From positions 15,095 through 79,094 of the forward strand of contig JACQCF010000010.1 in NCBI GenBank assembly GCA_016201795.1: a stretch of 64,000 nt of DNA. Reading direction: 5' to 3'. The position numbers and the translations under genes were made by a program. Numbering within the stretch: the first letter of the stretch is position 1; every line of letters starts with the position of its first letter. Of this stretch, positions 49,260 to 64,000 are shown in pieces. Source of the stretch: Candidatus Omnitrophota bacterium. Lineage in GTDB: Bacteria; Omnitrophota; Gorgyraeia; Zapsychrales; Fredricksoniimonadaceae. The notes under the pieces were generated by a model, which made no database searches, was not told the DNA's origin, and saw only the letters and a list, made by a program, of their open reading frames with translations.

Positions 49260-50099
49260 ATGGCTATGGAAAATAAAAAACAGATCTTTTTGATCATATT
49301 TGCGGTGGTCGCCGGTATTGCGGCGACGCTATTAACCAGCAATTATGTGATCAGAACAATAGAACAGAAGACGCAGGAACTTTCTGACCAGTATGACCAA
49401 AAGCAAAAACAGATGGCGGCGGAATTGCAGCAGCAAAGCCAGCAGCAGGTGGCTGCTTTGCGTGAGGAGATTGGCCGCATCAGCCAGCAGCAGCAGGAGA
49501 CTTTGCAAAAAGCCAACGCCGCGATGCAGGCTGGGCAGCAGGGCGCGGCCATGGGGAAGCAAAGAGCCAGACGCGCCACTACCCTGTTAACCATGAAAAC
49601 ACCTGCCGGCAAACGCGCGGTGACGGTGATGATTGATTCTTTAGCCGCGGTGGGCGGGCTTTTAAACCCGGGCGATTTCGTGGATGTGATGGCGCATTTG
49701 AACGTGCCTGAAGAAGCAAGCTCTGATAAGAAAAAGACTCTTACGGCGATGGTTTTTCAAGATTTGCAGGTGCTGGCGATCAACACTAATTTGGAGGATG
49801 CCGGGGCTTACGATGAGCAGCAGGCTGCGGGGTCTTTAAAGGTAACCTTTGCGGTGGACCCGCAAGAAGCGGGGCTTTTGGCTTTTGCCGATAAAAACGG
49901 CAAGCTGGAGCTGGCTCTGCGGGCTACCAATGAAAACGATAAACAGATGGTCAAGGCCTCCACCTGGAAGACGCTGGCGGATTATGTGCTGCAGAATCAG
50001 GGTTCCGCCATCGATGTCCCCGAAGAAGGAATGCCCAAAACCGGAACAAAAGAAGGAAAGCCCTACATTCAGATTTTTAGAGGAGGTAAGGAGCTCTAA
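49260..50099 (+). CDS. cpaB: Flp pilus assembly protein CpaB/RcpC with inserted Gln-rich coiled coil
   Basis: 279 aa with an N-terminal TM, a ~70-aa Q-rich segment, then the RcpC/CpaB C-domain (AVTVMIDSLAAVGGLLNPGDFVDVMAHL...LQVLAIN...VTFAVDPQEAGLLAFA). Confidence 0.75.
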   Translation: MAMENKKQIFLIIFAVVAGIAATLLTSNYVIRTIEQKTQELSDQYDQKQKQMAAELQQQSQQQVAALREEIGRISQQQQETLQKANAAMQAGQQGAAMGKQRARRATTLLTMKTPAGKRAVTVMIDSLAAVGGLLNPGDFVDVMAHLNVPEEASSDKKKTLTAMVFQDLQVLAINTNLEDAGAYDEQQAAGSLKVTFAVDPQEAGLLAFADKNGKLELALRATNENDKQMVKASTWKTLADYVLQNQGSAIDVPEEGMPKTGTKEGKPYIQIFRGGKEL

Positions 50100-50102
50100 T
50101 CC

Positions 50103-51878
50103 ATGAGAATATTTCTGTTAAAAATTTTAGTGGTGGGGGCCATGACAGCCTTTTTTGCCGGCACGGCCTCGTCGGATGAAGGGGATAATGCCCCCAAGGC
50201 CCCGGAGGTGATTGAACTTGTCACCGGGGATGTGCAGACGGTTGAAACTAAAAATTTAAGCAGGGTTTCGGTGGCCAACCCGGACGTTGCGGATATTTCC
50301 GATGCGCAGCCCAATAAAGTACTTGTCGTCGGCAAAAAGGCGGGACAGACGGAGGTGTCTATCTGGGATGACAACGGCAAGAAGAGCGTCATCGTGCGGG
50401 TGGCCGGCGAAAATCTTGACTCCCTTAAAACCCGCCTGGAGGCGATTATCAATAAAACCGGTATCAAAGGAATATCTCTGGATAAAAGTGCGTATGAAGG
50501 CAAAGTCGTTTTATCAGGCTCCGTTTATAAAGAGGACAAGGACGTTCTGGATAAAGTGACGGATCCTTTTAGCGACAGGATCATCAATTTAGTTAAAAAA
50601 GAAGTCAGTGAAGATTTGGTGCAGATTGATATGCAGGTCACCGAATTGAGCACGACATTAACCAAAAGTATTGGTATAGACTGGAACAGAGGGGGCGCCA
50701 GTGGCGCCACGACGGGTGCGACGGGCGTCAGTACTACTAGCGGTACGCCGTTTTTGAATTTGGATTACAAGGAAACATTACCGAGCACTAACGGTAAACC
50801 GGAAGATTTCTTTAAAATAGGTGATTTTAACCGTACCAGTTCGATTTTAGCCACCGTCAATGCCCTGCTGCAAGAAGGCAAAGGCCGTATTCTTTCCAAA
50901 CCGCGTCTGGTGGTTTTAAGCGGCAAGGAAGCCAGCTTCTTAGTCGGCGGTGAAATCCCTGTTGTCACGACAACGACCACTGGCGGCGGTGCCGGAACGA
51001 CAACGTCCAATGTGTCGTTTAAACAATACGGGGTGAATATGACGATCACCCCGACGGTGCGCGATGGCAAAATCGATATTCTGCTCAATGTACAAATCAG
51101 CGACATTGACCGCGCCAACAAGGTAGGCAATGATGTGGCTTTCATCACCCGTTCAGCGCAGACCCAATTATTTTTGGATAACAGTCAGACGATTGTGTTG
51201 GCGGGATTGATTAAACATGCCGACGGGCAAACCATCAAGGGGATTCCTTTTTTAAGTAAAATACCGGTGGTGGGGATGTTCTTTAGGACCCGTCAGAATG
51301 GAGCGCCTGATTCAGATACTGAGCTGGTGATTTCCTTAACACCGACGATCCTTAAATCCAAGAAGATGGCCACCGAGCAGGTGGTTTTGCCCACCAAACG
51401 CATGGATAGTTTCGCCAAGGAAATCGAAAGCAATTTTGAGAAAGAACCGCTTAATCCCCCCCTGGAGAAAAAGCTCCCCATGGCCCCGCCGGCCAAGGGC
51501 GCTTCCCAGCCGATGATGATAAAACCCATCTCCCAGGTGCCGGATATCATCGTGTCCTTGTATGTGCGTTCCATTCAGCTAAGAATTTCTCAGGCCGTTT
51601 CTTATCCGTATGAGGCCCTGCAGAAGAATTGGCAGGGCGCAGTGAAACTGCGGCTGCGTATTCTCAAAGACGGCACCCTGGCAGATGCGGATGTGCTGGA
51701 ATCTTCCGGCCATGATGTATTTGACAAAGACGCTCTTAATACCGCCAAAACCGCGGCTCCGTTCGCGCCGTTTCCCAAAGAGATGAAGGGGGAAGATATC
51801 GTGGTGACGGTCCCCATTGTTTATAACCAGCACACCGCTTCCCAAAATGATACACAAACCGTAGTCGCTGCTTACTAA
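50103..51878 (+). CDS. cpaC: Tad secretin CpaC/RcpA fused to a C-terminal TonB-C-like domain
   Basis: 591 aa with a signal peptide and a secretin core (...LSKPRLVVLSGKEASFLVGGEIPV...GIPFLSKIPVVGMFFR...). A linker is followed by a ~90-aa segment matching the TonB C-terminal domain pattern (YPYEALQKNWQGAVKLRLRILKDGTLADADVLESSGHDVFDKDALNTAKTAAPFAPFPKE). Confidence 0.8.
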   Translation: MRIFLLKILVVGAMTAFFAGTASSDEGDNAPKAPEVIELVTGDVQTVETKNLSRVSVANPDVADISDAQPNKVLVVGKKAGQTEVSIWDDNGKKSVIVRVAGENLDSLKTRLEAIINKTGIKGISLDKSAYEGKVVLSGSVYKEDKDVLDKVTDPFSDRIINLVKKEVSEDLVQIDMQVTELSTTLTKSIGIDWNRGGASGATTGATGVSTTSGTPFLNLDYKETLPSTNGKPEDFFKIGDFNRTSSILATVNALLQEGKGRILSKPRLVVLSGKEASFLVGGEIPVVTTTTTGGGAGTTTSNVSFKQYGVNMTITPTVRDGKIDILLNVQISDIDRANKVGNDVAFITRSAQTQLFLDNSQTIVLAGLIKHADGQTIKGIPFLSKIPVVGMFFRTRQNGAPDSDTELVISLTPTILKSKKMATEQVVLPTKRMDSFAKEIESNFEKEPLNPPLEKKLPMAPPAKGASQPMMIKPISQVPDIIVSLYVRSIQLRISQAVSYPYEALQKNWQGAVKLRLRILKDGTLADADVLESSGHDVFDKDALNTAKTAAPFAPFPKEMKGEDIVVTVPIVYNQHTASQNDTQTVVAAY

Positions 51879-53220: not shown

Positions 53221-55380
53221 ATGTCCTGCAAAATCATCACAATCTTCAGTAATAAAGGCGGGGTTGGCAAAACCTTCGTCGCTGTTAACACGGCCGCGGC
53301 GCTGGCGCTCAAAGGCAAAAAAGTTTTAGTGGTTGATTTTGACCTTCAGGCCGGCCAGAACATGGCCCGTATGTTCAATCTCACCCCTGCCCATTCTCTG
53401 GTGGACATCCTCTCGGCCATGGAAAGCGACGAGAAAAGCTATATCGTTAAGAAATTCGCCGCGCCTCATTCCAGCGGCCTGGACTTTTTACCGGCGGTCA
53501 ATCACGTCCGCCAGGGCGGCCATATTACTCCCGATAACATACGTCCCTTTTTCAAAAGAGCGGCAGCTCTTTATGATTATATCATCATTGACGCGGACAG
53601 ATCCTTTAGCGAGACGCTCATTAGCGTTTTGGATAACACCAATTTAATTTTATTGGTGACCACTCCCGATATTCTGGCGGTGTATCAGGCCAAAAGCGGC
53701 CTGGAGATTTTACAGAGCCTGCATTTTCCTTTAAAAATGTCCAAATTGATTTTGAACCGGGCCGAAAGCCGCGGCGGGGTGGCCTGGCAGGAAGTGCAGT
53801 CGGTTGTAGCCTGCGATATGTTCGCTCTTGTTCCTTCCGACGGGAAAACCGTTGGCCTGGCCTTAAACCGCGGTATTCCCTGCGTCATTGACAGTCCCCG
53901 GACGCGCGTTTCCGAGGTTTTCTTCGAATTGGCGGACAAACTGCAGGCGGAGGATATCTATGTGCATTCCTCCGACGTGGTTAAAGTGCGTACCGTGGAA
54001 GGCCTGAGCTCCAAAGGCAATGAATTTTGGGAAAAATTCGGCATTGCGCCCGGAGGGTCCTCACCGATGGAGGTGACCTATAAGAAGGAAGAAGACGAGG
54101 TCATTAAATTAAAAAAAGTCATTCACCAGAAGCTGGTGGAGCGCATGAACCTTAAAAAGATCTCCCCACAAGTCTTCACCGATACGCAACAGGCGGCCAA
54201 TATGCGCAAAGCCGCGGAAAAGTTGGTCACGGAACTTTTGGCCGAAACCTCGGGAACCATTATTGCTTCCCACGAGGAACGCTCCCGGCTGGTGCGCGAA
54301 ATTGTCAATGAAGCGCTGGGCTTAGGTCCGCTGGAAGATCTGTTGGTGGATGAGGATATTTCCGATATCATGGTCAACAACAAAGACGAAATTTTCATCG
54401 AGAAAAACGGTAAAATCATTTTGACCAACAAGCGTTTTATTTCCAATGAACAGGTGCGCGCCACCATTGACCGCATCATCGCCCCTTTGGGGCGCCGCGT
54501 GGACGAATCGACCCCGATGGTGGATGCCCGCCTGCCCGACGGCTCGCGTATTAACGCCATTATCCCGCCGCTGGCCTTAAACGGTCCGATGATTACCATC
54601 CGCAAATTCTCTCAGGAGCGTTACACCATGGAGGATTTGCTCACTAAATTCAAAAGTATTTCCCAGCCCATGGCGGACTTTTTAGACGCCTGCGTGATTG
54701 GTCGCAAGAATATGATCATCTCCGGCGGGACCGGCGCAGGCAAGACCACGCTTTTAAATATTGTGTCACATTTTATCCCCGACAATGAACGCATCATCAC
54801 CATTGAGGATGCGGCGGAGCTGCGTTTGAGCAAAGTGCATTGGGCCCGCCTGGAATCGCGCCCGTCTAACGTGGAAGGCAAGGGCCATATTGCCATTCGG
54901 GATCTTTTTATCAACACGCTGCGTATGCGCCCGGATCGTATCATCATCGGCGAGTGCCGCGGCCCGGAAGTTTTGGATATGATGCAGGCGATGAACACCG
55001 GCCACGACGGCTCGCTGACCACCTTGCACGCCAACACCACCCGGGACGTCCTGGCGCGTTTATCGTCGATGGTTTTGCTCTCCGGCATTGAGCTTCCCAT
55101 CCGTGCTATTTATGAAATGGTGGCCTCCTCCATCAATATCATCGTGCAAATTTCCAGGTTTTCCGACGGTTCGCGCAAAATTACGGCCATTTCCGAGCTC
55201 ACCGGCAAAATGGTCGAGGGCCTGCCAGAGATGAAAGATGTTTTTGTCTTCAAGCACAGGGGCATCAATACCGAGGGGGTTGTTTTAGGAGAGTACGTGG
55301 CCACTGGCTTTGTGCCCAAATGCTACGACGATTTTATGACGCGGGGAATTCCGCTCAGCAAAACGATTTTTAATCCGTGA
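53221..55380 (+). CDS. TadZ/CpaE-like MinD-family ATPase fused to TadA/CpaF secretion ATPase
   Basis: 719 aa. The N-terminal ~270 aa is a ParA/MinD-type P-loop (SNKGGVGKTFVAVNTAAALA). The C-terminal ~400 aa is a CpaF/TadA type II/IV secretion NTPase (GGTGAGKTTLLN Walker A, IIIGECRGPE, GHDGSLTTLHAN). Confidence 0.8.
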   Translation: MSCKIITIFSNKGGVGKTFVAVNTAAALALKGKKVLVVDFDLQAGQNMARMFNLTPAHSLVDILSAMESDEKSYIVKKFAAPHSSGLDFLPAVNHVRQGGHITPDNIRPFFKRAAALYDYIIIDADRSFSETLISVLDNTNLILLVTTPDILAVYQAKSGLEILQSLHFPLKMSKLILNRAESRGGVAWQEVQSVVACDMFALVPSDGKTVGLALNRGIPCVIDSPRTRVSEVFFELADKLQAEDIYVHSSDVVKVRTVEGLSSKGNEFWEKFGIAPGGSSPMEVTYKKEEDEVIKLKKVIHQKLVERMNLKKISPQVFTDTQQAANMRKAAEKLVTELLAETSGTIIASHEERSRLVREIVNEALGLGPLEDLLVDEDISDIMVNNKDEIFIEKNGKIILTNKRFISNEQVRATIDRIIAPLGRRVDESTPMVDARLPDGSRINAIIPPLALNGPMITIRKFSQERYTMEDLLTKFKSISQPMADFLDACVIGRKNMIISGGTGAGKTTLLNIVSHFIPDNERIITIEDAAELRLSKVHWARLESRPSNVEGKGHIAIRDLFINTLRMRPDRIIIGECRGPEVLDMMQAMNTGHDGSLTTLHANTTRDVLARLSSMVLLSGIELPIRAIYEMVASSINIIVQISRFSDGSRKITAISELTGKMVEGLPEMKDVFVFKHRGINTEGVVLGEYVATGFVPKCYDDFMTRGIPLSKTIFNP

Positions 55381-55715
55381 TCAAAAATCTTACCCGACAG
55401 ACCATTCTGGCGACCTGCGTCGAAATCGCTCATACGCCTTTGAAACGGATGCGGGGTCTGGTCGGCCGTTTGTTCCTCAAACCAACCGAGGCTTTGGTCA
55501 TTGCCCCTTGCCAGAGCATTCATATGCTGTTTATGAAATTTCCCATCGACGTCATTTTTCTCGACGATAAAAATAAAGTCATAGGCCAAAGGGCGCGCAT
55601 CAAGCCTTTTCAATTCTCGGCGATTTTTTGGAAATCTGCTTGCGCCATCGAATTGCCGGCTGGTACAATTGAGCTAACCCATACACAACTTGGCGATCAA
55701 ATACAAATTTCTTAA
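55377..55715 (+). CDS. DUF192 domain protein
   Basis: 112 aa ...MRGLVGR...LVIAPCQSIHMLFMKFPIDVIFLD... has a DUF192/COG1430-like pattern. Confidence 0.55.
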   Translation: MIKNLTRQTILATCVEIAHTPLKRMRGLVGRLFLKPTEALVIAPCQSIHMLFMKFPIDVIFLDDKNKVIGQRARIKPFQFSAIFWKSACAIELPAGTIELTHTQLGDQIQIS

Positions 55716-55768
55716 TGCTAGATTATTGCTGCCTGAAAAATGCTATAATTGGAATGGAGGTGAATCCT

Positions 55769-55972: not shown

Positions 55973-56216
55973 TATTGACCCTGCCGCTCGTCGTGACCTT
56001 AAGAAATTCAAACGCAATTTTTCTTTATTGCGAATCTTTATTTCCTTGATTGATGGTCTTGCAACATCTCCTTTTGAAGGCAAGCCATTGGCAGGCGATA
56101 AGAAGGGATGCTATTCCCTGCGGCATCAGGATTATCGGATTATTTACACCATTTATCCCGAGTCTAAAACAGTGCTTGTTATCAGTATTGGTCATCGTTG
56201 GGAAGTTTATCGTTAA
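55953..56216 (+). CDS. Type II toxin RelE/ParE family
   Basis: 87 aa ...YSLRHQDYRIIYTIYPESKTVLVISIGHR. Confidence 0.75.
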   Translation: MSSYHVDIDPAARRDLKKFKRNFSLLRIFISLIDGLATSPFEGKPLAGDKKGCYSLRHQDYRIIYTIYPESKTVLVISIGHRWEVYR

Positions 56217-56224
56217 GGTATGCC

Positions 56225-57700
56225 ATGGGAGTCGTCTACAAACTAACTCCGGAGATCAGCTCCTTTATCATCGAGCAAAAAAAGAGCAACCCGCAATTGA
56301 CCTGTCAACACTTAGCGGGGCTGGTGCTGTCGCGTTTTGGCCAGCCGCTTTCCAAATCCTCGGTGCATGAGCTTTTAAAACAGTCGCATACCATCACCCC
56401 CCGCCTGCACAAGCTTAAGAATAAATTTCAAATTCCGCCGCAGAAAAAGGCGCAGATTTTTCCGACAATCCTGGCGATGCCTGCCTCGCCGGCAGGCGGG
56501 CCTGCGCCAGATCCCCCACCGGCTCCCACCATTGAGCCTGTAGCCATGCAACAAGTTCCTCTGCAGAAACCGCCTCAACCGCTCACGCAGGGCCAAGTCC
56601 AACAACGCATGGGCGAGATTTTCCTCAAGGCCGCCTTCTGGGATCTGTCCTTTAAGCCCATTTTGGGCTTAAAGGATTTTGATGATATTAATGGTTCGAC
56701 GGGCTCACCATTAGATAAAAATAGTTTAAGATTAGAATGGGAATCCTTAACCAAGCCAGTTGAGGCGATCAAAGTAGAGTTAGAAGACAGCCATTGTTTT
56801 TACATCGACTGCCGCTTTCAAGGTTTATACGCGGATAATCCTCAAAAGGAATTTTTGGCCGCGCCTCTTGAGCGTTCTGCCGGGGAAATGCCGGATTACG
56901 TGCTTAATAATATTCAACCTTTGATCATTAGGGAATTTAATACAACTGATTCAATTACAACAGTTTATGATCTCATAGCGGCTTTTGAGAACTTACCGGG
57001 TAAGGCTATTACTAAAATTTCCCTTATAGGAGCTCAAAATCAAATTTTAACTGAATTTAGCTTGCCTCGCCGGCAGGCGGGCCTGCCTGTCGGTTTGCCT
57101 TTGGCTTATAAACGTCATTTTATCTTGGGAATATCTTCTAACTGTGAGGAATTTCAATGGGTTATGAAAGACCAAAAGCCGGAAAATCCCTGGCTAACGC
57201 CCCTCAAAGACAAAAAAGGTCAACCAATTGCCCTAAGAATCCTTAAAAAAGGTGGTAATATTATCATAACTAATTTATTATCATATAGTTATGATAATAT
57301 TATAAAGCTCTATCTGAACCGGCATCCTCAAAGCTTGTCATTCCCGAATGTTTCTATCGGGAATCTAGTAGTTGCCAATACTGGATCCCCGACTAAAACT
57401 TTCGGGGATGACACACTGACTAACCAATCCCAATGGCTCAAAAACCGTCTCAAGGAGCGCGCTCTGATGCTTTTCCCGTTGGATTTACCCCCGGCGGCCT
57501 TAGAGGAGATTTTAGCCCTGCCAGGCTTTGAGGCGTCTCATGAAAAAATGCTTCAGGTACACTTGAATGTGCCGGATCAGTTTCCCTATATTCAAAGTGT
57601 GCAGGCCGCCGCCGCATGCGTGAATAGTTTAGATATTACAGACCCCAAGGGCCGGAAAATCGATGTTCAAGTGGATGTTACGCATGTAGAGAGATTTTGA
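56225..57700 (+). CDS. Hypothetical protein with N-terminal HTH-like region, Pro-rich linker and internal 28-bp direct repeat
   Basis: ~490 aa with no TM. N-terminus ...ISSFIIEQKKSNPQLTCQHLAGLVLSRFGQPLSKSSVHELLKQ, then a P/A/Q-rich linker. The DNA repeat gcCTGCCTCGCCGGCAGGCGGGCCTGC occurs at 56476-56503 and 57061-57088. Confidence 0.5.
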   Translation: MGVVYKLTPEISSFIIEQKKSNPQLTCQHLAGLVLSRFGQPLSKSSVHELLKQSHTITPRLHKLKNKFQIPPQKKAQIFPTILAMPASPAGGPAPDPPPAPTIEPVAMQQVPLQKPPQPLTQGQVQQRMGEIFLKAAFWDLSFKPILGLKDFDDINGSTGSPLDKNSLRLEWESLTKPVEAIKVELEDSHCFYIDCRFQGLYADNPQKEFLAAPLERSAGEMPDYVLNNIQPLIIREFNTTDSITTVYDLIAAFENLPGKAITKISLIGAQNQILTEFSLPRRQAGLPVGLPLAYKRHFILGISSNCEEFQWVMKDQKPENPWLTPLKDKKGQPIALRILKKGGNIIITNLLSYSYDNIIKLYLNRHPQSLSFPNVSIGNLVVANTGSPTKTFGDDTLTNQSQWLKNRLKERALMLFPLDLPPAALEEILALPGFEASHEKMLQVHLNVPDQFPYIQSVQAAAACVNSLDITDPKGRKIDVQVDVTHVERF

Positions 57701-57706
57701 TACGAT

Positions 57707-57804
57707 TTCCCCTCCCCTGGTGGGAGGGGTAAGGGGAGGGGGATCGACGGAGATCATCGTTTTTATGCCCCCGCCCTAACCCTCCCCACAAAGGGGGAGG
57801 GAAT
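57707..57804 (+). repeat. MITE-like G-rich palindromic element, copy B
   Basis: TTTCCCCTCCCCTGGTGGGAGGGGTAAGGGGAGGGGGA...GCCCCCGCCCTAACCCTCCCCACAAAGGGGGAGGGAAT, lying 160 bp upstream of the first flp gene. Confidence 0.7.
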
Positions 57805-57964
57805 CCAAATTTTTATACAGGCGAGGTTGACATCGGGTATTTTATATGGCATACTTTATTTACGATAATGAGATGGATGTCAAAGACGTATTTAAAGTCT
57901 CCGAAAGAGACTTTTATTATAGACGGGCATAATCGTCTTCACGAAACAACCATAGGTGAACCCA

Positions 57965-58120
57965 ATGGGTCGCTTCAAAAATGTAAAAGCTCAAAACTTA
58001 ATCGAATACGCGATCGTGTTGGGTTTAGTCTCGGCAGCCATCGCTGCCATGAGCACCTATGTGTTTCGTTCAATACAGGCCGCCCAGAAGACGGTTGATC
58101 AGGAATTCGGCGCACAATAA
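57965..58120 (+). CDS. flp: Flp-family type IVb pilin (canonical short form, 51 aa)
   Basis: Absent from the ORF track because it is under 60 aa. MGRFKNVKAQNLIEYAIVLGLVSAAIAAMSTYVFRSIQAAQKTVDQEFGAQ has the Flp processing motif (xxxxEY) followed by a hydrophobic helix. Confidence 0.7.
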   Translation: MGRFKNVKAQNLIEYAIVLGLVSAAIAAMSTYVFRSIQAAQKTVDQEFGAQ

Positions 58121-58146
58121 CGTTCTTACAACAGGAGACATAATCT

Positions 58147-58428
58147 ATGTTTAGAAATATAAATGGTTCGAAGGGCTCGCCACGAGATAAACTCGGGCAG
58201 AGCACCGTAGAGTACATCATTCTGGTAACCGCTGTGATTGCGGTGGTGATTCTGTTTGTCGCCAATCCAGGTACCGGATTTCAAAAGAAGGTTAACAGCA
58301 CGTTGGAGACAGCAACTCAAGGGATGGAGGATAAAGGGGCTTTTTTGAGTACTTCGCATAATACAGCCCCTGGGAATTCCGACTTGCCGCAGATAAACGT
58401 TGACATAACGAGCAATCTGCTACCTTAG
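58147..58428 (+). CDS. Flp-type pilin paralogue with C-terminal extension
   Basis: 93 aa; leader ...KLG/QSTVEYIILVTAVIAVVILFV. Confidence 0.7.
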   Translation: MFRNINGSKGSPRDKLGQSTVEYIILVTAVIAVVILFVANPGTGFQKKVNSTLETATQGMEDKGAFLSTSHNTAPGNSDLPQINVDITSNLLP

Positions 58429-58479
58429 TTACTTTAAGAAAAGTTCCTTAATAACCTTAAGGAAAATTTAGGAGGATAT

Positions 58480-58842
58480 ATGTTAAGACAGTTATTCAAA
58501 AATAAAAACGGACAGAACACCGCCGAATACGCGTTGTTGATTGCCCTGGTTGTTGCAGGCATTGTGGCCATGCAAACCTATGCCCAGCGGTCCTTACAGG
58601 CGCGGGTGCGCGATGCTTCGCAGTATTTGACAACCACGACCAACACCATAGGTAATTCGGTGCAGTATGAGCCTTATTATTTGCAAACCAATTACGAGGT
58701 CACACGTGACAGCGGCAGTAATCAAAGGTTGAGCAAAGGCACCACAGCCGCGGATTCTTTCACCAATCGCGAACGTGCGAAAGGCGGCTCTCAAGTGTCG
58801 ACGTATAATACGTCTGTAAATGGTTTGACTAATGGACTTTAA
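58480..58842 (+). CDS. Flp-type pilin paralogue, extended (QYEPYY subgroup)
   Basis: 120 aa; MLRQLFKNKNG/QNTAEYALLIALVVAGIVA..., with the QYEPYY motif shared with the 59560 paralogue. Confidence 0.7.
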   Translation: MLRQLFKNKNGQNTAEYALLIALVVAGIVAMQTYAQRSLQARVRDASQYLTTTTNTIGNSVQYEPYYLQTNYEVTRDSGSNQRLSKGTTAADSFTNRERAKGGSQVSTYNTSVNGLTNGL

Positions 58843-58898
58843 GCTAAACACAACCCTGTGCCCTGGAGGGTACAGGATGATCATTTAAGGAGGAAGGT

Positions 58899-59231
58899 AT
58901 GATTGCTTATCTTAATCGTCACAGAGGACAAAGCACGCTCGAATATGCGGTGCTGATTATCATCATCATCGCGGCTTTGCTCTCCATTCAGATTTATATC
59001 AAACGCGGCGTGCAGGGCCGTTTAAAGAGCTCCGCCGATGATATCGGTGATCAGTTCTCGCCGGGCAATACCAATGTTCTTAAGGCGGAGAAGACCAAAA
59101 CTGTAGAAAGCCAACAGTTTGGTATCACCGGTCAAGGCGTGCAAAACAGCACCTTGCTTAATAAGGAAACAACTAACTCGGCCACACAATCGGTTGTTGT
59201 CAACAATGATCAGGAATACTGGGGACAATAA
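58899..59231 (+). CDS. Flp-type pilin paralogue, extended (IKRGxQGR subgroup)
   Basis: 110 aa; ...HRG/QSTLEYAVLIIIIIAALLSIQIYIKRGVQGRLKSSADDIGDQF. Confidence 0.7.
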   Translation: MIAYLNRHRGQSTLEYAVLIIIIIAALLSIQIYIKRGVQGRLKSSADDIGDQFSPGNTNVLKAEKTKTVESQQFGITGQGVQNSTLLNKETTNSATQSVVVNNDQEYWGQ

Positions 59232-59240
59232 CCAGTTCTT

Positions 59241-59342
59241 AGTAAATAGTAAATAGTAGATAGTAGATAGTTAATGGTGAGTGATTTTGGGACATGGTTC
59301 CTGAGGTCCTCACCATTTACTATTTACTATTCACCATTAACG
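59241..59342. repeat. Large palindromic element with tandem TAAATAG/TAGATAG heptads between pilin genes
   Basis: aGTAAATAGTAAATAGTAGATAGTAGATAGTTAATGGTGAGtgattttgggacatggttcctgaggtcCTCACCATTTACTATTTACTATTCACCATTAAC forms a ~40-bp imperfect stem. Confidence 0.65.
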
Positions 59343-59346
59343 GACC

Positions 59347-59547
59347 ATGAGGATTAGTATGAGTAAGAAAGGCCAGAGCACCATAGAGTACATTTTGTTG
59401 GTGACCGCGGTGGTGGCAGTGGTGATTTTTTTGACAACCGGACAGAATTCCATGTTTCAGCAAAGACTGGCCAATACCATTAATATCACCACCAACGGCA
59501 TGGAAACCATGGCCAATCGTCTCACCAATTCGGCGGTCGTGCCGTAA
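59347..59547 (+). CDS. Flp-type pilin paralogue
   Basis: 66 aa MRISMSKKG/QSTIEYILLVTAVVAVVIFL. Confidence 0.7.
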   Translation: MRISMSKKGQSTIEYILLVTAVVAVVIFLTTGQNSMFQQRLANTINITTNGMETMANRLTNSAVVP

Positions 59548-59559
59548 GGATGAAGGACT

Positions 59560-59982
59560 ATGGTCAAAGGACGCCGCCAGCAGGGGGTAACTTCTTTAGC
59601 CGAATACACCATGACGTTTTTTTTGGTGATCGCCGTGGTGGTGGCCATGACCACTTATATTCAGCGTTCCCTGCAGGCGCGTATACGCGATGCACGTCAT
59701 TACATGATTGCCGCCGTCAGCAATCAATGCGATGCCAATTGTATGAATGCCACAGGGTTAGCGGGCAGTAACACCATAGGAGAACAGTACGAGCCGTATT
59801 ATGCGGCAGTGAATGCGACGGTGAGTGCGGATAGCCTGGTTCGAAAAGGGCTTTTAGCACCAGGCGTTGGCAGTACGGGAATTTTTAGGGCGCAGACCAA
59901 CGAACAGAATCAAAGCGCCTCTGACAGCAACCAACTGCCGCCGGTCAATGCAGCGAATGATAAAGTATTGGGGGCGCAGTAA
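59560..59982 (+). CDS. Flp-type pilin paralogue, extended (QYEPYY subgroup)
   Basis: 140 aa MVKGRRQQG/VTSLAEYTMTFFLVIAVVVAM...GEQYEPYYAAVN. Confidence 0.65.
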   Translation: MVKGRRQQGVTSLAEYTMTFFLVIAVVVAMTTYIQRSLQARIRDARHYMIAAVSNQCDANCMNATGLAGSNTIGEQYEPYYAAVNATVSADSLVRKGLLAPGVGSTGIFRAQTNEQNQSASDSNQLPPVNAANDKVLGAQ

Positions 59983-60426
59983 ATGGTGAATAATAAACGT
60001 AGCAGAGTTTCCCCTCCCCTTGTGGGAGGGGTAAGGGGAGGGGAATTAAAAAGGCGCATCGTCTTGTTTCCCCCCACCCTGGCCCTCCCCACAAGGGGGA
60101 GGGAAAAAGAAGGCCAAACCGTTTTAGAGTACATTTTATTAATCGGCATTGTGACGATAGCGCTGGTGTACATGGGCACGGATATCAAGCGCGGTATCCA
60201 AAGCGTGATTAAAGTGACGGCTGATCAAATAGGCAATCAACAGCAGTCGGAGCAGGATTTTAGCGCCACTGGCGGATATCTGGTTAATTCAGCAAGTTCC
60301 GTCAAAGACATTAGCCACAGATCCGTGCAGGAAAGAATCGGCGTGGTGACAACGGCGAGCGATGATTTTATGCAGACGACGACCAACAGTCTGACCAATG
60401 CGGGCTTTACGCCGACGGGGAATTAA
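59983..60426 (+). CDS. Flp-type pilin paralogue with MITE copy C inserted in-frame in its leader peptide
   Basis: 147 aa. MVNNKRSRV is followed by 33 element-encoded codons, then KEG/QTVLEYILLIGIVTIALV. No alternative in-frame ATG, GTG or TTG start exists downstream of the element. Confidence 0.55.
   Translation: MVNNKRSRVSPPLVGGVRGGELKRRIVLFPPTLALPTRGREKEGQTVLEYILLIGIVTIALVYMGTDIKRGIQSVIKVTADQIGNQQQSEQDFSATGGYLVNSASSVKDISHRSVQERIGVVTTASDDFMQTTTNSLTNAGFTPTGN
60009..60105 (+). repeat. MITE-like G-rich palindromic element, copy C (inside the pilin ORF, ~99 bp)
   Basis: TTTCCCCTCCCCTTGTGGGAGGGGTAAGGGGAGGGGAATT...CCCCCCACCCTGGCCCTCCCCACAAGGGGGAGGGAAA. Confidence 0.7.
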
Positions 60427-60431
60427 GTAAA

Positions 60432-60585
60432 TTCCCCTCCCCTGGTGGGAGGGGTAAGGGGAGGGGAGATTGAAGATTTTAAGGTTTTGGAATCATGATG
60501 TGCCCAGGAATCGGGATGGGGTTTTACAAAAGATAGTTGATCGTTTGATTTCCCCCTCCCTAACCCTCCCCACAAGGGGGAGGGA
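60432..60585 (+). repeat. MITE-like G-rich palindromic element, copy D (long-spacer variant)
   Basis: Left end 60432-60468 and right end 60550-60585, with a ~85-nt spacer. The right end AGGGGGAGGGAAGG supplies an SD-like sequence 8 nt before the GTG at 60596. Confidence 0.7.
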
Positions 60586-60595
60586 AGGCCTGTTG

Positions 60596-60916
60596 GTGCG
60601 AGGCGTTAAAGGCCAGAGTTTTTTGGAATATTCCGTGCTGCTCATTATCATTCTGGCCGTATTTTTATCCATGCAGATGTACATCAAACGCGGCATTCAG
60701 GGCCGCTGGAAATCAGCGGTGGATGAATTCGGTGATCAATACGATCCGCGGGTGGCCAATTCCGCGGCCAGTTACACGTTACTGAGCAATTCCAGTACAC
60801 AGGTGACGGTTATTCCCGAAGCTAACGGCCAGGTGACCATGAGGCAGGACAGCACCAATGCGGTGGAGACCAAAGCGGGCAGCACCACGGTGGGGTCGGT
60901 TTCGGCTCAACCGTAA
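60596..60916 (+). CDS. Flp-type pilin paralogue (IKRGxQGR subgroup), probable GTG start
   Basis: VRGVKG/QSFLEYSVLLIIILAVFLSMQMYIKRGIQGRWKSAVDEFGDQY. The ORF track starts at TTG 60470, inside the repeat. Confidence 0.6.
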   Translation: MRGVKGQSFLEYSVLLIIILAVFLSMQMYIKRGIQGRWKSAVDEFGDQYDPRVANSAASYTLLSNSSTQVTVIPEANGQVTMRQDSTNAVETKAGSTTVGSVSAQP

Positions 60917-60921
60917 ATGGT

Positions 60922-60968
60922 GTCATTGCTTCGTCGTCCCGCCTTGGCGGGACTCCTCGCAATGACAC
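60922..60968. repeat. Palindromic repeat (GTCATTGC...GCAATGAC), short copy 5' of the large TadE-like gene
   Basis: GTCATTGCttcgtcGTCCCGCCttgGCGGGACtcctcGCAATGAC is a nested hairpin. The 60927-61006 stretch is duplicated at 63401-63480. Confidence 0.65.
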
Positions 60969-60977
60969 TTAATAGAT

Positions 60978-62651
60978 ATGAACAAACATAAAAAAGGCCA
61001 GGCGATAGTGGAAGCAGCCATCTTCGGCGCCATTTTGATTTTCTTAATGGGCACTATTCTGCGCACGCATGTCAGCGTCAGTCAAAATCAGAACCATCAG
61101 ATCAAGGCCCTGAAATTGGCGCTCTTGCAAAGCTTCAAGGGTTACAACCACAAGACCAGTTCCCGCAATTCCTCCAGCGTGCTTTTTGTGGAAGACCGCC
61201 TCTCACCGGATGTTAACAAATTCGCCGCCATTGACAGGTCGCCGTTTATTGCCGGCGGCTCAGGCACCATGAGCAACCGCCTGTTTTATCCGGTTGATGC
61301 CGGCGAGATCGGCAGCAATCTGCCGATCACCGACATTTTTATCAACGGCCAGCATTTTCCTTTGACCACCGCTTCTTTAGTGTTCAGGCGTATTTACCAG
61401 CCCGCGCCTGGGGTTTACCCATCCGTGCCCGGGGAAACTTGCCCGTTAGACACTAATGACCCCGAGCACTATAATTGCCTGCAGCAGCAGAACGAATATC
61501 TGACTCCTGCCACTTGCCCTACTCCTCCCTGCTCTCCTTATCCGCTTTTTTTTACCATGGCGGTCAACGGAACAGTGCAATATTGTTATAACACCACTCA
61601 GCTTACTGCAACATGCCACAACAATGTTTTGAATCAATTACAAAGTTTTCACCTGACGCGTCAATGGAGCGGTCCTAGCTTGTCCTTTACTCCTAACAAG
61701 GAAGTAGACTCCTCGATGTACCCTTATATGACCTGGCAATGGCAGGCGGTTAAGGGCACGGGCGATAATGTCAATATTGTCAAGCAAAACCAGGATGGCA
61801 GCGCCCCCAACACCGACAACAACGGTAAAATCAATGTCGACAAAACCAATGACGCGTATCCCTCTTTGGATGTGGATGGAGACAAAAAAGAAGAAACCGT
61901 CTACGCGGTCACGTGTCAATCCTCCAATAGTTTACAAAGTACTATTGATGGGGTGGATGATCAATATAAGATCAACGGAAAGATTTTATTGTTAGACAAC
62001 GGGACTGTTCTTGGCAACTCTGGCCTTCTGGCAAAATTGGGTTTTGACTGTTCTAGTTCAACAACGTGTATCAAGACGGATGGGTCCAATCAATCCCTGG
62101 AGTGCGATCCGAACGCATCTACGTTTTTAAAGTGTAAGTTTAAAGCCGACAGCAGCATTAGCGGTTGCACGAACAATGCACCCATCACAGGAGTCATCGC
62201 TTTGGATACCCAGCTGGGGGACATTGACCAAACCTTTGATAGTTCTTCTCATGGGCCCACACCCGGGCTTCAAGGGAATATGGGAATATACACCGAAGTC
62301 AGGCCGGGGACTTTTTTGCAAATCAAAGAAGGGAAGCTCTACAACCCCGAGACCCACCAGATGGTGCGAAGCATCAGCAGTAAAGACAGTGTGGATTTTA
62401 TCTCACGGACGTTTCAGTTAAGCAACGACACCAGACGCTTTTGCCCCGCAGTCGGAACTACTCCTGAGCTCACTGTAGACGGAGAGTCTAATCCCGTGCA
62501 GGTATGTGTCGATGGGACCACGACTACTTGTTTCGATGACAATTCCAGAAAGACCTGTTTTGACCGGGTTAACCGCATCCTTTATATTCGCACCAATGTG
62601 GGGGACAATCGGACCAGGAAATGGTTTACGGATGTAACTAAAGGACTATGA
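60978..62651 (+). CDS. TadE-like pseudopilin with large Cys-rich C-terminal domain (putative tip or adhesin subunit)
   Basis: 557 aa; N-terminus MNKHKKG/QAIVEAAIFGAILIFLMG is TadE-like. It is followed by ~500 aa rich in Cys, Asn, Thr and Asp (TCPTPPCSPYP, CQSSNSL, FDCSSSTTCIK). Confidence 0.65.
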   Translation: MNKHKKGQAIVEAAIFGAILIFLMGTILRTHVSVSQNQNHQIKALKLALLQSFKGYNHKTSSRNSSSVLFVEDRLSPDVNKFAAIDRSPFIAGGSGTMSNRLFYPVDAGEIGSNLPITDIFINGQHFPLTTASLVFRRIYQPAPGVYPSVPGETCPLDTNDPEHYNCLQQQNEYLTPATCPTPPCSPYPLFFTMAVNGTVQYCYNTTQLTATCHNNVLNQLQSFHLTRQWSGPSLSFTPNKEVDSSMYPYMTWQWQAVKGTGDNVNIVKQNQDGSAPNTDNNGKINVDKTNDAYPSLDVDGDKKEETVYAVTCQSSNSLQSTIDGVDDQYKINGKILLLDNGTVLGNSGLLAKLGFDCSSSTTCIKTDGSNQSLECDPNASTFLKCKFKADSSISGCTNNAPITGVIALDTQLGDIDQTFDSSSHGPTPGLQGNMGIYTEVRPGTFLQIKEGKLYNPETHQMVRSISSKDSVDFISRTFQLSNDTRRFCPAVGTTPELTVDGESNPVQVCVDGTTTTCFDDNSRKTCFDRVNRILYIRTNVGDNRTRKWFTDVTKGL

Positions 62652-62698
62652 AAACGTAAGAAGTAAATGGTTAATGGTACATGGTTAATGGTTAGAAA

Positions 62699-63049
62699 AT
62701 GTTTAAATTTGAAACATTGGATATTTGGAAGGAATCAGTAAAGTTTGCAGATGAAATTTATCAAGTAGTCAGGAACAGTTCAGATTATAGTTTAAATGAC
62801 CAAATTAAAAGGGCGGCAAATTCGATAGCTTTAAACATAGCTGAGGGTACAGGACGCGGTTCGAAAAATGATTTTAAAAGATTTATTCAGATTTCTATAG
62901 GGTCGCTGTATGAAGTAGTAACATGTTTATACATAATGAAAAATCATAAGGATATTACACAAGAGGCTTTCACAAGACTATATGAAAGATCGCAACAGTT
63001 GTCAAAGATGTTGCATGGTTTTATGAGTTATTTAGAGAAAGAACAGTAA
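62699..63049 (+). CDS. Four-helix-bundle protein (TIGR02436-like, 'S23 intervening-sequence protein' family)
   Basis: 116 aa MFKFETLDIWKESVKFADEIYQVV...RAANSIALNIAEGTGRGSKNDFKRFIQISIGSLYEV is the family signature. Confidence 0.7.
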   Translation: MFKFETLDIWKESVKFADEIYQVVRNSSDYSLNDQIKRAANSIALNIAEGTGRGSKNDFKRFIQISIGSLYEVVTCLYIMKNHKDITQEAFTRLYERSQQLSKMLHGFMSYLEKEQ

Positions 63050-63051
63050 CC

Positions 63052-63333
63052 ATGAACCATTTACCATTAACTATTAACCGTAGACGGCCTCGAAGAGGCC
63101 AGTCTACCATTGAATTTACTTTTGCCGTAGTAATGGTGGCCCTTTTGATTTTCGGGCTGATCAAGATTTTTCAGTGGGTGGGAATGAATTTTGCCCAGCG
63201 CTCTTGGGACTTGGACAATGCCCAGTTTGTAAAGCCGCCTATGGACAGCAGCTTTGTTGCCAACGAAGAGGCACAGCTGAACCATGATGCGTATAGGACC
63301 AAACGCCTTAATGCGTTTACGAGGAATTTTTGA
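63052..63333 (+). CDS. Flp/TadE-like pseudopilin
   Basis: 93 aa MNHLPLTINRRRPRRG/QSTIEFTFAVVMVALLIFGLI. Confidence 0.6.
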   Translation: MNHLPLTINRRRPRRGQSTIEFTFAVVMVALLIFGLIKIFQWVGMNFAQRSWDLDNAQFVKPPMDSSFVANEEAQLNHDAYRTKRLNAFTRNF

Positions 63334-63442: not shown

Positions 63443-63452
63443 CTTAATAGAT

Positions 63453-64000
63453 ATGAACAAACATAAAAAAGGCCAGGCCGCTTTGATCATGATCCTTGTT
63501 GCGGCCACGGCTCTTACCTTTTACGCCATTACCCTTAACTGGAGCCGTGTAGCGGATGTAAAAATCCATCATTGGATGGCCGCGACCAATGCCTCCACTC
63601 AATCGGCCTCACTGCTGGCTAGCTGGGGGGAAAGGACATTGTGGGAGGAGCTCATTCCCCTGGGAGACCCTCTCGATTACAATTCGGGGGTAATAGAGCA
63701 TGTAGAAAAAACATGGCTTTTTATCAAAATCCTTGTGATCATTATTGTGGTGATCATAACGATTTTTACTCTTGGTGCTACAGCCGCCTTGCTAGTTCTT
63801 GTTATAATGTTGGTTGCTTTAACTCTTGAATATGCGGTGATCACGCCGATGCAATTTGACATATGGAATAAACTGGAAAAAAATATGGCAGAGGAGCTGG
63901 ACCAATTCCGGGAAGAGGGGATAAGGACAGGCTTACAAGCTGCAGTCAATGATCCTGTAAACCTTCCGGACCGTTTTGACATGAACAGCAATGGCAAATT
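63453..64000 (+). CDS. TadE/TadG-like pseudopilin, 5' partial (continues beyond the window)
   Basis: MNKHKKG/QAALIMILVAATALTFYAIT... shares its first 8 codons and 5' UTR with the 60978 gene. A second hydrophobic segment LFIKILVIIIVVIITIFTLG follows. Confidence 0.55.
   Translation, partial: MNKHKKGQAALIMILVAATALTFYAITLNWSRVADVKIHHWMAATNASTQSASLLASWGERTLWEELIPLGDPLDYNSGVIEHVEKTWLFIKILVIIIVVIITIFTLGATAALLVLVIMLVALTLEYAVITPMQFDIWNKLEKNMAEELDQFREEGIRTGLQAAVNDPVNLPDRFDMNSNGK

Follow-up and report, generated by a model that had tools for sequence, protein, structure and literature searches.

The eight co-directional open reading frames O1 to O8, which occupy 57965-60916 on the + strand of the window (the whole 64-kb stretch of DNA analysed), probably encode the pilins of a Tad-type (type IVc) pilus, whose operon is conserved throughout the phylum Omnitrophota, judging from sequence comparison. 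All eight lie where an earlier note had placed them, and its reading of them as Flp-type (type IVc/Tad) prepilin paralogues was borne out, as each encodes a short basic leader, a G/A-xxxx(x)-EY processing site and a hydrophobic helix (Table 1). Tad loci are known in Omnitrophota, with expression reported in V. archaeovorus (PMC10066038). Window proteins are 100% identical to the NCBI hypothetical proteins HY209_02945, HY209_02960 and HY209_02970 of a Candidatus Omnitrophica MAG.

Table 1. Pilus-related genes and sequence elements in the window.
Feature	Position	Strand	Details
RcpC/CpaB-like pilus assembly protein	49260..50099	+	Pfam RcpC 3e-25; operon start; slot matched in L004, L006
Tad-type secretin with C-terminal TonB_C	50103..51878	+	Pfam Secretin 2.2e-41, T2SS-T3SS_pil_N 1.1e-14, TonB_C 7.3e-18
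CpaE/TadZ-like ParA domain fused to CpaF/TadA-like T2SSE ATPase, 719 aa	53221..55380	+	T2SSE 5.9e-59
DUF192-like small protein	55377..55715	+	syntenic slot is PF02643 DUF192 in L002, L003, L004
Protein of ~450-500 aa, N-terminal HTH	56198..57700	+	directly 5' of pilin array; candidate regulator
Sigma-70-like promoter match, TTGACA-17-CATACT with TG	57827..57855	+	about 110 nt 5' of O1
O1, short Flp-type prepilin, 51 aa (42 aa mature)	57965..58120	+	AGGTGA Shine-Dalgarno
O2, class A prepilin, 93 aa	58147..58428	+	Class_IIIsignal E 2.3e-4
O3, class B prepilin, QYEPYY, 120 aa	58480..58842	+	orthologues 59-68% identity
O4, class C prepilin, 110 aa	58899..59231	+	RGVQGRLKS..DDIGDQFSPGNTN..QEYWG
Inverted repeat, 33-nt arms, between O4 and O5	59249..59341		
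O5, class A prepilin, 62 aa	59359..59547	+	Class_IIIsignal 26.5 bits, over gathering score 23.7 (Pfam)
O6, class B prepilin, QYEPYY, 140 aa	59560..59982	+	alignment A3
O7, class C prepilin, 147 aa	59983..60426	+	short-leader orthologues 48-56% identity
Second G-rich hairpin element copy	60432..60595		split by DUF559 C-terminal fragment
O8, class C prepilin, 106 aa from GTG start	60596..60916	+	orthologues 49-65% identity
T9, 557 aa, prepilin-like N-terminus KKGQAIVEAAIF..., TadF/TadG-like position	60978..62651	+	orthologues in matching slot
T10, TadE-like pseudopilin, 93 aa, RRGQSTIEFTFAVV...	63052..63333	+	orthologues in matching slot
T11, 5' part of large prepilin-like gene	63453..64000	+	runs off window end

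The operon runs in the order RcpC, secretin, CpaE-CpaF ATPase, pilins and TadE/G-like large proteins; TadB/C (two T2SSF genes) lie downstream in syntenic relatives only, and in relatives a ninth Flp-like gene precedes tadB. The domain layout of the secretin, TonB_C included, is identical in relatives, and the CpaE-CpaF fusion, which has AAA_31 and ParA matches of 1e-16 to 1e-17 (Pfam), is also kept in the related loci L004 and L006. Full-length orthologues of the candidate regulator (35-47% identity) occupy the matching slot of L002 and L004, the L004 orthologue matching HTH_32 at 2.3e-6, under the gathering score, and the match to L006 spans only 91 residues. The sigma-70-like site is a consensus match only, and the region has no more promoter-like sites than expected from shuffled sequence. 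Neither the window nor the surrounding 10 kb or so in relatives yielded a prepilin peptidase.

Both strands of the 64 kb were scanned for [GAS]-x4-E-[YFHQ] ahead of a hydrophobic stretch of 17 residues, which gave eight + strand matches from 57989 to 63333, namely seven array ORFs and T10, and one spurious match in the remainder. O6 was missed because of its x5 spacing, and a relaxed x4-5 pattern recovers its orthologues in related loci. The G/xxxxEY site that had been ascribed to every paralogue is present overall but departs from that form in O1, which has Ala rather than Gly at -1 (KA/QNLIEY), and in O6, which has one extra residue (G-x5-EY) that places Glu at +6, out of register; this Glu is absent from one orthologue, and O6 also has two Cys. 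The eight ORFs are all present, but the series does not stop at 60916, since the prepilin-like genes T9, T10 and T11 continue past it. T9 has no Pfam match and orthologues of 478-594 aa, T10 scores 15.4 bits against Pfam TadE (gathering score 22.9), and T11 shares its first 8 codons and the 53 nt upstream of them, without a mismatch, with T9.

O1 is most likely the fibre subunit, on the basis of its size, position and Pfam affinity. Its orthologues (58-78% identity) have mature lengths of 41-45 aa in 64 loci, and 33 of 38 O1 family members, the window protein counted, match Flp_Fap at E<=0.01 (best E 1.2e-7). O1 had been called canonical, which holds for its size but not for its Flp_Fap score of 18.1 bits against a gathering score of 32.2 that no window protein reaches (Pfam). 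The remaining paralogues form three classes, A (O2, O5), B (O3, O6) and C (O4, O7, O8), so that the array reads O1 + ABC + ABCC. The motifs by which the paralogues had been grouped recur as described, QYEPYY in O3 and O6 and IKRGxQ...GDQ in O4 and O8, more loosely in O7. By hhalign, alignment A2 matched A3 (class B) with 98.7% probability, aligned via a GDQ(Y/F)xP / GxQYEP motif, and A4 matched A3 with 98.4% probability, which points to a common origin. Six of the eight paralogues have mature lengths of 76-131 aa, about twice those of textbook Tad pilins, which are described as having 40-60 residues and lacking a C-terminal domain (PMC10710030). Classes B and C had no curated family match among Pfam and NCBIfam models, and fold searches gave no pilin match.

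Within class A, O2 and O5 are paralogues at 46% identity. O5 may start at 59347 (66 aa) or, as we prefer, at 59359 (62 aa), the latter being the call on a Logan contig, and its slot exists in a subset of genomes only (16 of 64 loci). At E<=1e-10, class B matches 915 representatives of 50%-identity clusters, in most cases over the full length (115-150 aa), and QYEPYY is invariant or nearly so across alignment A3. O4 has at least 1390 homologues, the best 120 of which are nearly full length at 56-82% identity, and 28 invariant columns of 110, with an invariant C-terminal QEYWG; many of these homologues carry the JGI name 'UPF0333 family'. O4 is at least as conserved as O1, which we counted against choosing O1 as the major pilin. 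AF2 models predict a helix and four short strands for O4 (pLDDT 67.8) and a helix and long beta-hairpin for O6 (pLDDT 66.5), with C-terminal parts at pLDDT 53-71 and 66-68 overall. With modest confidence, these models suggest that in classes B and C the alpha-1 helix is followed by a small beta-hairpin or beta-sheet contributed by the extension.

The reported range of 66-147 aa for the paralogues corresponds to real ORFs, but O7 owes part of its 147 aa to an in-frame ~99-nt G-rich hairpin element (60008-60105; -68 kcal/mol) that enlarges its leader to 44 aa, compared to about 4-13 aa in orthologues, and that may lower O7 expression in this genome. The 3' arm of the second copy supplies GGGAGGGAA just 5' of the O8 GTG start. 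The inverted repeat between O4 and O5 folds into a stable hairpin as RNA (59228-59350, about -43 kcal/mol, z = -6.3) and shares its heptamer-repeat type with the inverted repeat around the IVP gene (62663-63078).

An O4 relative is encoded by 138 species-representative genomes; we fetched 80 loci, and 64 loci span O1 to O8. In BLASTP, each paralogue matches best the gene at the corresponding position of L002, L004 and L006, with orthologue identities of 37-78% that always exceed that gene's within-genome paralogue matches (23-47%, over 50 or more residues). The pattern is 1ABCBCC in 38 of 64 loci and 1ABCABCC, that of the window, in 16. The ABC triplet is duplicated as a unit in 4 of 64 related loci; block duplications with copies 52-100% identical are seen in L012, L014, L018, L038, L067 and L030.

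The context best supports the earlier suggestion of multiple minor pilins. All eight proteins would be cleaved after Gly/Ala by a prepilin peptidase whose gene would lie elsewhere in the genome, and O1, which is helix-only, first in the operon and alone in its Flp_Fap affinity, would polymerise to form the fibre. Proteins of classes A, B and C would be low-abundance accessory (minor or adapter) pilins that prime assembly and link this fibre to T9-T11 as large TadE/F/G-like tip proteins, on the model of KilK/KilO and the Kil tip complexes of Myxococcus. Since the triplet is duplicated as a block, A, B and C may act together as a unit. Its most likely role is to attach these very small bacteria to surfaces or to host or prey cells. 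Points that weigh against this overall reading are the failure to find a prepilin peptidase near the array, the Flp_Fap scores under threshold, the modest AF2 confidence, the fold searches that gave no pilin, the displaced Glu of O6 and the hairpin in the O7 leader.

It is unlikely that several paralogues, the long B/C proteins included, are instead stoichiometric blocks of a heteropolymeric fibre in which beta-structured C-termini coat a helical core. A fibre of seven to eight components is without precedent, the solved Caulobacter Tad fibre consists of a 45-residue helix-only pilin (PMC10710030) that O1 matches in size, and genomes differ in how many A, B and C genes they carry (6 to 11), which suits accessory parts better than a fixed lattice. 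On the other hand, such an outer layer would be comparable to the globular domains of archaeal and type IVa pili, and it agrees with the AF2 helix-plus-beta models, the extreme conservation of O4, the absence of an obvious terminator after O1 and an apparently single operon with good ribosome-binding sites nearly throughout; in the Geobacter pilus, two polypeptides can form one pilin unit (discussed in PMC10710030).

A different alternative is a T2SS-like piston whose short periplasmic endopilus expels large surface or effector proteins, a mechanism that has been proposed for the giant-protein loci of this phylum. In its favour, very large prepilin-like genes follow the array (T9; T11, 1030-1230 aa in relatives), one major and several minor pseudopilins is the T2SS layout, and Omnitrophota giant-protein loci reportedly have T2SS or pilus genes on their flanks (bioRxiv 10.64898/2026.06.07.730766). 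We nevertheless consider this reading quite improbable, as the parts are Tad-type (RcpC, Tad secretin N-domain, CpaE-CpaF fusion and split TadB/TadC), no GspG-K family matches were found, and the prepilin-like N-termini of T9 and T11 make them more likely pilus-tip subunits than cargo.

The array had also been proposed as an antigenic or functional variation repertoire, and a use of the paralogues as alternative pilins in antigenic or phase variation would suit tandem paralogues with divergent surface-exposed C-termini, an A-B-C copy number that differs among a few species, and the poorly conserved, length-variable and near-neutral O2 tail (pN 0.54 vs pS 0.62). This proposal was not sustained and is very unlikely. 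In the other Omnitrophota genomes examined in detail, positional orthologues correspond 1:1 to the paralogues, gene order is fixed across dozens of species, and mature length is conserved in seven of eight slots (medians over the 64 loci: O1 42, O3 109, O4 98, O6 118, O7 103 and O8 97 aa). The extensions of O3, O4, O6, O7 and O8 are under purifying selection, as indicated by C-terminal pN of 0.17-0.38 against saturated pS of 0.7-0.84 in comparison with L002 (O3, 0.32 vs 0.79; O8, 0.29 vs 0.84). Moreover, each copy is a full gene with leader and start codon rather than a promoterless cassette, and there is no invertible or recombination-site structure apart from unrelated repeat-element insertions. 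Together, these findings suggest a fixed set of specialised subunits rather than a variable repertoire; functional diversification is partly supported, and only at phylum scale, with A-B-C duplicated as a unit in a few lineages.

That the long ORFs are wholly or C-terminally non-coding, or products of frame errors, for which one could cite the missing curated family matches and the low-complexity, polar-rich tails, is hardly conceivable given hundreds to thousands of database proteins conserved over the full length, positional orthologues in dozens of species-level Omnitrophota genomes, pN well below pS, the invariant QYEPYY and QEYWG, and an identical, independent assembly on the Logan contig. 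Intergenic gaps are 0-169 nt, and a Shine-Dalgarno-like sequence lies 5-10 nt upstream of seven of the eight genes, the exception being O7, whose start abuts the O6 stop (TAA-ATG). The artefact reading is refuted for O3, O4, O6, O7 and O8, and only the distal O2 tail is weakly constrained.

Among known pilins, Caulobacter PilA (45 aa mature, PDB 8U1K) and PF04964 share with the array the G/xxxxEY site, a hydrophobic helix, the lack of Pro22 and the tad-locus context; O1 is of canonical size and most of its orthologues match PF04964, whereas six of the eight paralogues are far longer and no window protein reaches the PF04964 gathering score. Tad systems are thought to derive from archaeal Epd-like pili (PMC6668835), and the array resembles archaeal class III signal-peptide pilins in its KGQ-xxx-E(Y/F) processing region and continuous helix followed by beta structure, with O5 over the gathering score of PF04021, which O2 and O7 approach; however, the system here is that of a bacterial diderm with a secretin, and no sequence or fold match was found between the C-terminal parts and archaeal pilin domains. 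TadE, TadF and TadG (PF07811, PF13400) are accessory prepilin-like proteins downstream of flp, a position held here by T9-T11, whereas O2-O8 have no TadE or TadG signal and keep the Flp-type EY, in contrast to the TadE-type EF...P of T10.

The Kil pilus of Myxococcus xanthus comprises the major pilin KilP, the Flp adapters KilK/KilO and four TadE/F/G-like tip triplets (PMC12075869). Both systems combine a Tad-type machine, one proposed fibre pilin and many accessory pilins, with small Flp-type adapters alongside large TadG-like proteins, duplicated and diversified triplet modules, and a predatory or host-contact lifestyle. On the other hand, the duplicated triplet is Flp-derived here (A, B, C) and TadE/F/G-like in Kil, the genes form a single operon here and are scattered across clusters in Kil, function is only predicted here, and classes B/C are related to no curated Pfam or NCBIfam family. 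Bdellovibrio has four flp genes, of which two belong to the tad operon, a complement called the largest known in 2017, and Halobacteriovorax has three tad-associated flp copies (PMC5430801). These small cell-attaching bacteria likewise have several non-interchangeable Flp pilins detected by motif (PMC5430801), whereas the Omnitrophota operon holds seven to eight, and up to 11, with long extensions on most.

The eight open reading frames of the array described in the earlier note (O1 to O8) were all found in the window, and they share an N-terminus made of a short Lys/Arg-rich leader, a Gly, four residues, Glu-Tyr, and then a hydrophobic segment some 20 residues long. The note had assigned a G/xxxxEY processing site to all eight, which stood for O2 to O5, O7, and O8, where the Flp motif is exact, but not for O1, which has an Ala at -1 (G or A in its orthologues), or for O6, which has the spacing G-x5-EY. 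The subfamily motifs QYEPYY (O3 and O6) and IKRGxQ..GDQ (O4, O8, and O7) were located as it had claimed. When the 64-kb window was scanned in six frames for the prepilin signature, the plus strand gave eight matches in 57989-63333, namely every array ORF but O6, which needs a relaxed x4-5 spacing, and the downstream prepilin-like gene T10; the rest of the window gave one match, which was spurious. A correctly spaced Shine-Dalgarno-like sequence precedes seven of the eight genes, and the O7 start directly abuts the O6 stop codon. Since every array gene has its own prepilin N-terminus, we set aside the Geobacter PilA-N/PilA-C two-gene pilin model. The O6 family has a conserved Glu at +6 rather than +5 after the presumed cleavage Gly (Gln in the orthologue at the related locus L006), and O6 and its close relatives have two Cys in common, in a C-xxx-C loop.

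Array genes and neighboring features in window positions, with lengths in aa, median mature length per slot in the fetched related loci, and identity to positional orthologues
Feature	Position	Strand	Length	Mature length	Median mature length	Identity (%)
O1	57965-58120	+	51	42	42	58-78
O2 (class A)	58147-58428	+	93	76		
O3 (class B)	58480-58842	+	120	109	109	59-68
O4 (class C)	58899-59231	+	110	100	98	60-77
O5 (class A)	59359-59547	+	62 (66 from upstream ATG)	57		
O6 (class B)	59560-59982	+	140	131	118	37-60
O7 (class C)	59983-60426	+	147	103	103	48-56
O8 (class C)	60596 (GTG)-60916	+	106	100	97	49-65
Tad secretin	50103-51878					
DUF4143/AAA_14 ATPase gene	51942-53117					
CpaE-CpaF fusion	53221-55380		719			
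RelE/ParE-like toxin-antitoxin pair	55715-56216					
HTH protein	56198-57700		~450-500			
G-rich element, half copy	47121-47153					
G-rich element	57706-57803					
G-rich element, in O7	60008-60105					
G-rich element	60432-60595					
DUF559-like fragment	60470-60550					
'Empty' inverted repeat	59249-59341					
IVP gene	62699-63049					
Stretch bracketed by 32-nt inverted repeat	62663-63078					
79-nt direct repeat, first copy	60925-61003					
79-nt direct repeat, second copy	63400-63478					
O1 3' end	58096-58121					
O4 3' end	59207-59232					
O6 3' end	59958-59983					

By motif and locus, O1 to O8 are Flp-type pilins, but no window protein reached the gathering threshold of PF04964 (Flp/Fap; 32.2 bits): O1 scored best at 18.1 bits, O2, O3, and O5 scored 13.9-15.5 bits, and O4, O6, O7, and O8 had no match. 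Across the O1 family, 33 of 38 members (the window's O1 and 37 homologues) matched Flp_Fap at E<=0.01, the best at 1.2e-7. PF04021 (archaeal-type class III signal, UPF0333; threshold 23.7 bits), a model spanning just the 27-residue processing region, was passed by O5 at 26.5 bits, while O2 (21.4) and O7 (19.9) stayed below it and O1, O3, O4, O6, and O8 did not match. The TadE and Tad N-terminal models (PF07811/PF13400) matched neither O1 to O8 nor the downstream prepilin-like genes T9 and T11, and T10 scored 15.4 bits against a TadE gathering score of 22.9. NCBIfam had no pilin family match for any of the ten proteins, Pfam yielded nothing for the large downstream proteins or their orthologues, and PDB sequence/profile searches gave no match for the O4 family and only marginal N-terminal matches for the O1 family (Geobacter and type IV pilins, E 0.04-0.9). 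Two large families with hundreds to thousands of members are annotated as hypothetical, without a curated model.

The dnaA-dnaN-gyrB-gyrA genes lie about 12 kb upstream of the region. O1, O4, and O6 are 100% identical to the NCBI hypothetical proteins HY209_02945, HY209_02960, and HY209_02970 of a Candidatus Omnitrophica MAG, and an independent Logan assembly holds an identical 2.3-kb contig. The array is preceded by an RcpC/CpaB gene, a secretin with TonB_C, a ParA(CpaE)-T2SSE(CpaF) fusion, a DUF192-like gene, and an HTH protein of about 500 aa, and is followed by T9 (557 aa, prepilin-like N-terminus), T10 (93 aa, weakly TadE-like), and the start of T11 (large, prepilin-like). In syntenic relatives the operon goes on with a T11 of 1030-1230 aa, a ninth, Cys-rich Flp-like gene (RGxxGRWK..GRQYxP), and two T2SSF (TadB/TadC) genes, and the window stops before the position where the latter lie. 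With RcpC, the secretin, and the ATPase fusion in the window and both T2SSF genes downstream in the related loci L002, L004, and L006, the locus is a Tad-type pilus operon. Earlier work reports Tad loci from Omnitrophota and states that they are expressed in V. archaeovorus (PMC10066038); we found no description of the Omnitrophota Tad pilin set. A promoter/terminator scan showed no terminator after O1 and one plausible promoter-like site upstream of it, in a region whose promoter-like counts are not above shuffle expectation. Flp pilins are processed by a prepilin peptidase of the TadV/CpaA type; no real ORF of the window carries a peptidase motif of the G[GA]GD[VI]K type, and no Peptidase_A24 gene was called within about 10 kb of the locus in syntenic relatives.

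Several further features of the locus were observed. The C-terminal TonB_C domain of the secretin and the fusion of CpaE and CpaF into one protein are conserved in relatives. Two insertions are missing from the syntenic L004 and L006: a DUF4143/AAA_14 ATPase gene, which separates the secretin from the fused ATPase, and a RelE/ParE-like toxin-antitoxin pair, which separates the DUF192 gene from the HTH protein. The HTH protein, a candidate operon regulator, has an N-terminal homeodomain-like HTH and adjoins the array upstream, as in the close relatives L002 and L004; in L006 its slot holds a 611-aa gene with only a weak match. A G-rich, MITE-like double-hairpin element recurs in and around the array: one copy (fold -68 kcal/mol) lies in frame in the leader of O7, which is 44 aa long against about 4-13 aa in orthologues, and another supplies O8, which starts at a GTG, with its Shine-Dalgarno-like GGGAGGGAA. 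Between element arms upstream of O8 lies a fragment resembling the C-terminus of DUF559 (Vsr-like endonuclease; Pfam E 0.0076). Between T9 and T10 lies an inserted 23S-rRNA-IVP/four-helix-bundle gene (Pfam 3.7e-32), flanked by the arms of a 32-nt inverted repeat with TAAATGG-like heptamers. A repeat of this type also occurs 'empty' between O4 and O5, where it forms a stable hairpin (about -43 kcal/mol); the two suggest a small mobile cassette together with its footprint. The region also has a perfect direct repeat of 79 nt, made up of the palindromic element ATTGCTTCGTCGTCCCGCCTTGGCGGGACTCCTCGCAATGAC, then a spacer, and then the first eight codons (MNKHKKGQA), so that T9 and T11 have an identical 5' region and leader and then diverge. 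This repeat looks like gene conversion, or like an element that brings a ready-made start and leader.

We read the array as most probably encoding both the major and the accessory pilins of the Omnitrophota Tad pilus. O1 to O8 would be inserted as prepilins in the inner membrane and cut after Gly or Ala by a prepilin peptidase encoded elsewhere. O1 is the best candidate for the fibre subunit, because it comes first after the one good promoter-like site, because its mature length equals that of solved Tad pilins (PMC10710030), and because its family alone has a computed affinity to Flp_Fap. By analogy, the longer proteins of classes A, B, and C would most simply be accessory pilins that prime assembly and dock the large T9 to T11 on the fibre. 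The earlier note's description proved essentially correct, and its reading of multiple minor pilins is favored by the context; its other proposal, a variation repertoire, is not supported. We consider it unlikely that the array instead encodes a heteropolymeric shaft, and somewhat less likely again that it builds a secretion pseudopilus.

By BLASTP, the closest match of every array gene is its positional counterpart in the other genomes, and paralogues within a genome are just 23-47% identical (alignments of at least 50 residues). Class A comprises O2 and O5 (46% identical), class B O3 and O6 (36%, with QYEPYY), and class C O4, O7, and O8 (31-41%), along with the relatives' ninth gene. Profile-profile comparison showed that B and C are homologous through a post-helix motif, in which GDQ(Y/F)xP aligns with GxQYEP, and that O1 aligns with the helix part. 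The array layout is therefore O1 + (A B C) + (A' B' C' C''). Among GTDB species representatives, a scan turned up 138 genomes that encode an O4 relative. Of the 80 loci that we fetched, nearly all have Omnitrophota labels; about 30 of them, mainly third-party assemblies, carry the deposited labels Planctomycetales, Planctomycetia, or Phycisphaerae, and one Saccharibacteria. Among the 64 loci spanning O1 to O8, the pattern 1ABCBCC occurs in 38 and the window's own 1ABCABCC in 16, four have expanded to 10-11 genes via A-B-C triplet duplication, and a few are incomplete detections. Copies of duplicated triplets are 52-100% identical to each other, which indicates block-wise, independent duplications of different ages. 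This block duplication suggests that A, B, and C act jointly.

These patterns bear on the antigenic or functional variation repertoire that the earlier note had raised. In pilin antigenic-variation systems, which pair an expression locus with silent cassettes, one would expect silent copies that are promoterless or truncated, and content that is hypervariable between close relatives. All copies are instead full-length with a leader and start codon, orthologues are 1:1 in fixed order, and mature lengths are tightly conserved by slot. Compared with L002, the closest syntenic relative, synonymous differences are saturated (pS 0.7-0.84) and C-terminal pN is 0.17-0.38 in O3, O4, O6, O7, and O8. The tail of O2 is the exception and is weakly constrained, because its pN of 0.54 is close to its pS of 0.62 and its length differs between genomes. 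With full-length copies throughout and purifying selection on five extensions, we rejected an antigenic-variation cassette, and a variation repertoire is very improbable.

The long ORFs are real genes. O4 has at least 1390 homologues, the best 120 of which share 56-82% identity over nearly the full ~110 aa, and its family has 28 invariant columns, the C-terminal QEYWG among them. A class B profile (O6 and O3) hit 915 cluster representatives (50% identity) at E<=1e-10, mostly over positions 1-131 and in proteins of 115-150 aa. Near full-length homologues, conserved C-terminal columns, and pN below pS in five genes thus bear out the long C-terminal parts as genuine coding sequence (the O2 tail excepted) and leave practically no room for frame errors or non-coding ORFs.

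The extensions are rich in Ser/Thr/Asn/Gln/Gly (42-57%) with few charges. Structure prediction placed strands after the helix in both models made, but pLDDT was modest and neither PDB fold nor sequence searches gave an informative match. In the AF2 model of O4, built from a 50-sequence alignment, residues 13-53 form a helix and residues 61-97 include four short strands (mean pLDDT 67.8; 53-68 in the strand region); in that of O6, residues 8-56 are helical and a long beta-hairpin pairs 84-98 with 109-123 (mean 66.5). These models point with moderate confidence to a predicted helix plus small beta domain architecture for the extended pilins. At DNA level O1, O4, and O6 have similar 3' ends, stop codon included (85% over 26 nt for O1 and O4), which encode DQEFGAQ*, DQEYWGQ*, and DKVLGAQ*; this hints that the 'extensions' may be internal insertions, or that O1 may be the product of an internal deletion.

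Tentatively, and with more doubt than confidence, we propose that classes B (QYEPYY) and C (RGxQGR..GDQ(Y/F)xP..QEYWG) represent Tad pilins of previously undescribed kinds, with a beta C-terminal domain either kept or gained, and that together with A they form a modular heterotrimeric A-B-C complex. Derived from Flp pilins, this complex would be the counterpart of TadE/F/G tips, and its duplication as a unit would diversify pilus binding in ultra-small, possibly host-dependent bacteria. If so, a whole phylum would break the helix-only rule for Tad pilins, and B and C could bear on whether Tad pilins, once transferred from archaea, lost a globular domain. An archaeal (Epd-like) origin has been proposed for Tad systems (PMC6668835), with which the passing of the class III signal model by O5 would be consistent, and the array is a useful case for studying the relationship between Tad pilins and the domain-bearing pilins of archaea. 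Ultra-small, host-dependent or predatory cells are thought to occur among the Omnitrophota, with Tad pili implicated in their lifestyles (PMC10066038), and the array proteins are therefore prime candidates for a contact apparatus and targets for complex structure prediction, metaproteomics, and cryo-ET.

Tad pilins have been described as helices of about 40-60 residues without a C-terminal domain (PMC10710030). In the window only O1 and O5 are of this size and the other six pilins exceed it, and the strands predicted after the helix in O4 and O6 would set these two apart from helix-only pilins. Four flp genes, in Bdellovibrio, were described in 2017 as the largest complement known (PMC5430801). 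Specialised minor-pilin tips in a Tad pilus were shown only recently, in the Myxococcus Kil system, which has three Flp-type and twelve TadEFG-type pilins (PMC12075869), and in the priming and docking proposed for them A, B, and C may be likened to its Flp adapters KilK and KilO together with its TadEFG-like tips (PMC12075869). A whole uncultured phylum has retained a fixed operon with 7-8 Flp-derived pilins (up to 11); most of these are about 100-130 residues long, their conserved C-terminal parts are probably beta-structured, and their triplet modules duplicate as blocks. This phylum-wide set of 7-11 Flp-derived, mostly extended genes per operon is a distinct variation on a known theme rather than a system of a new kind.
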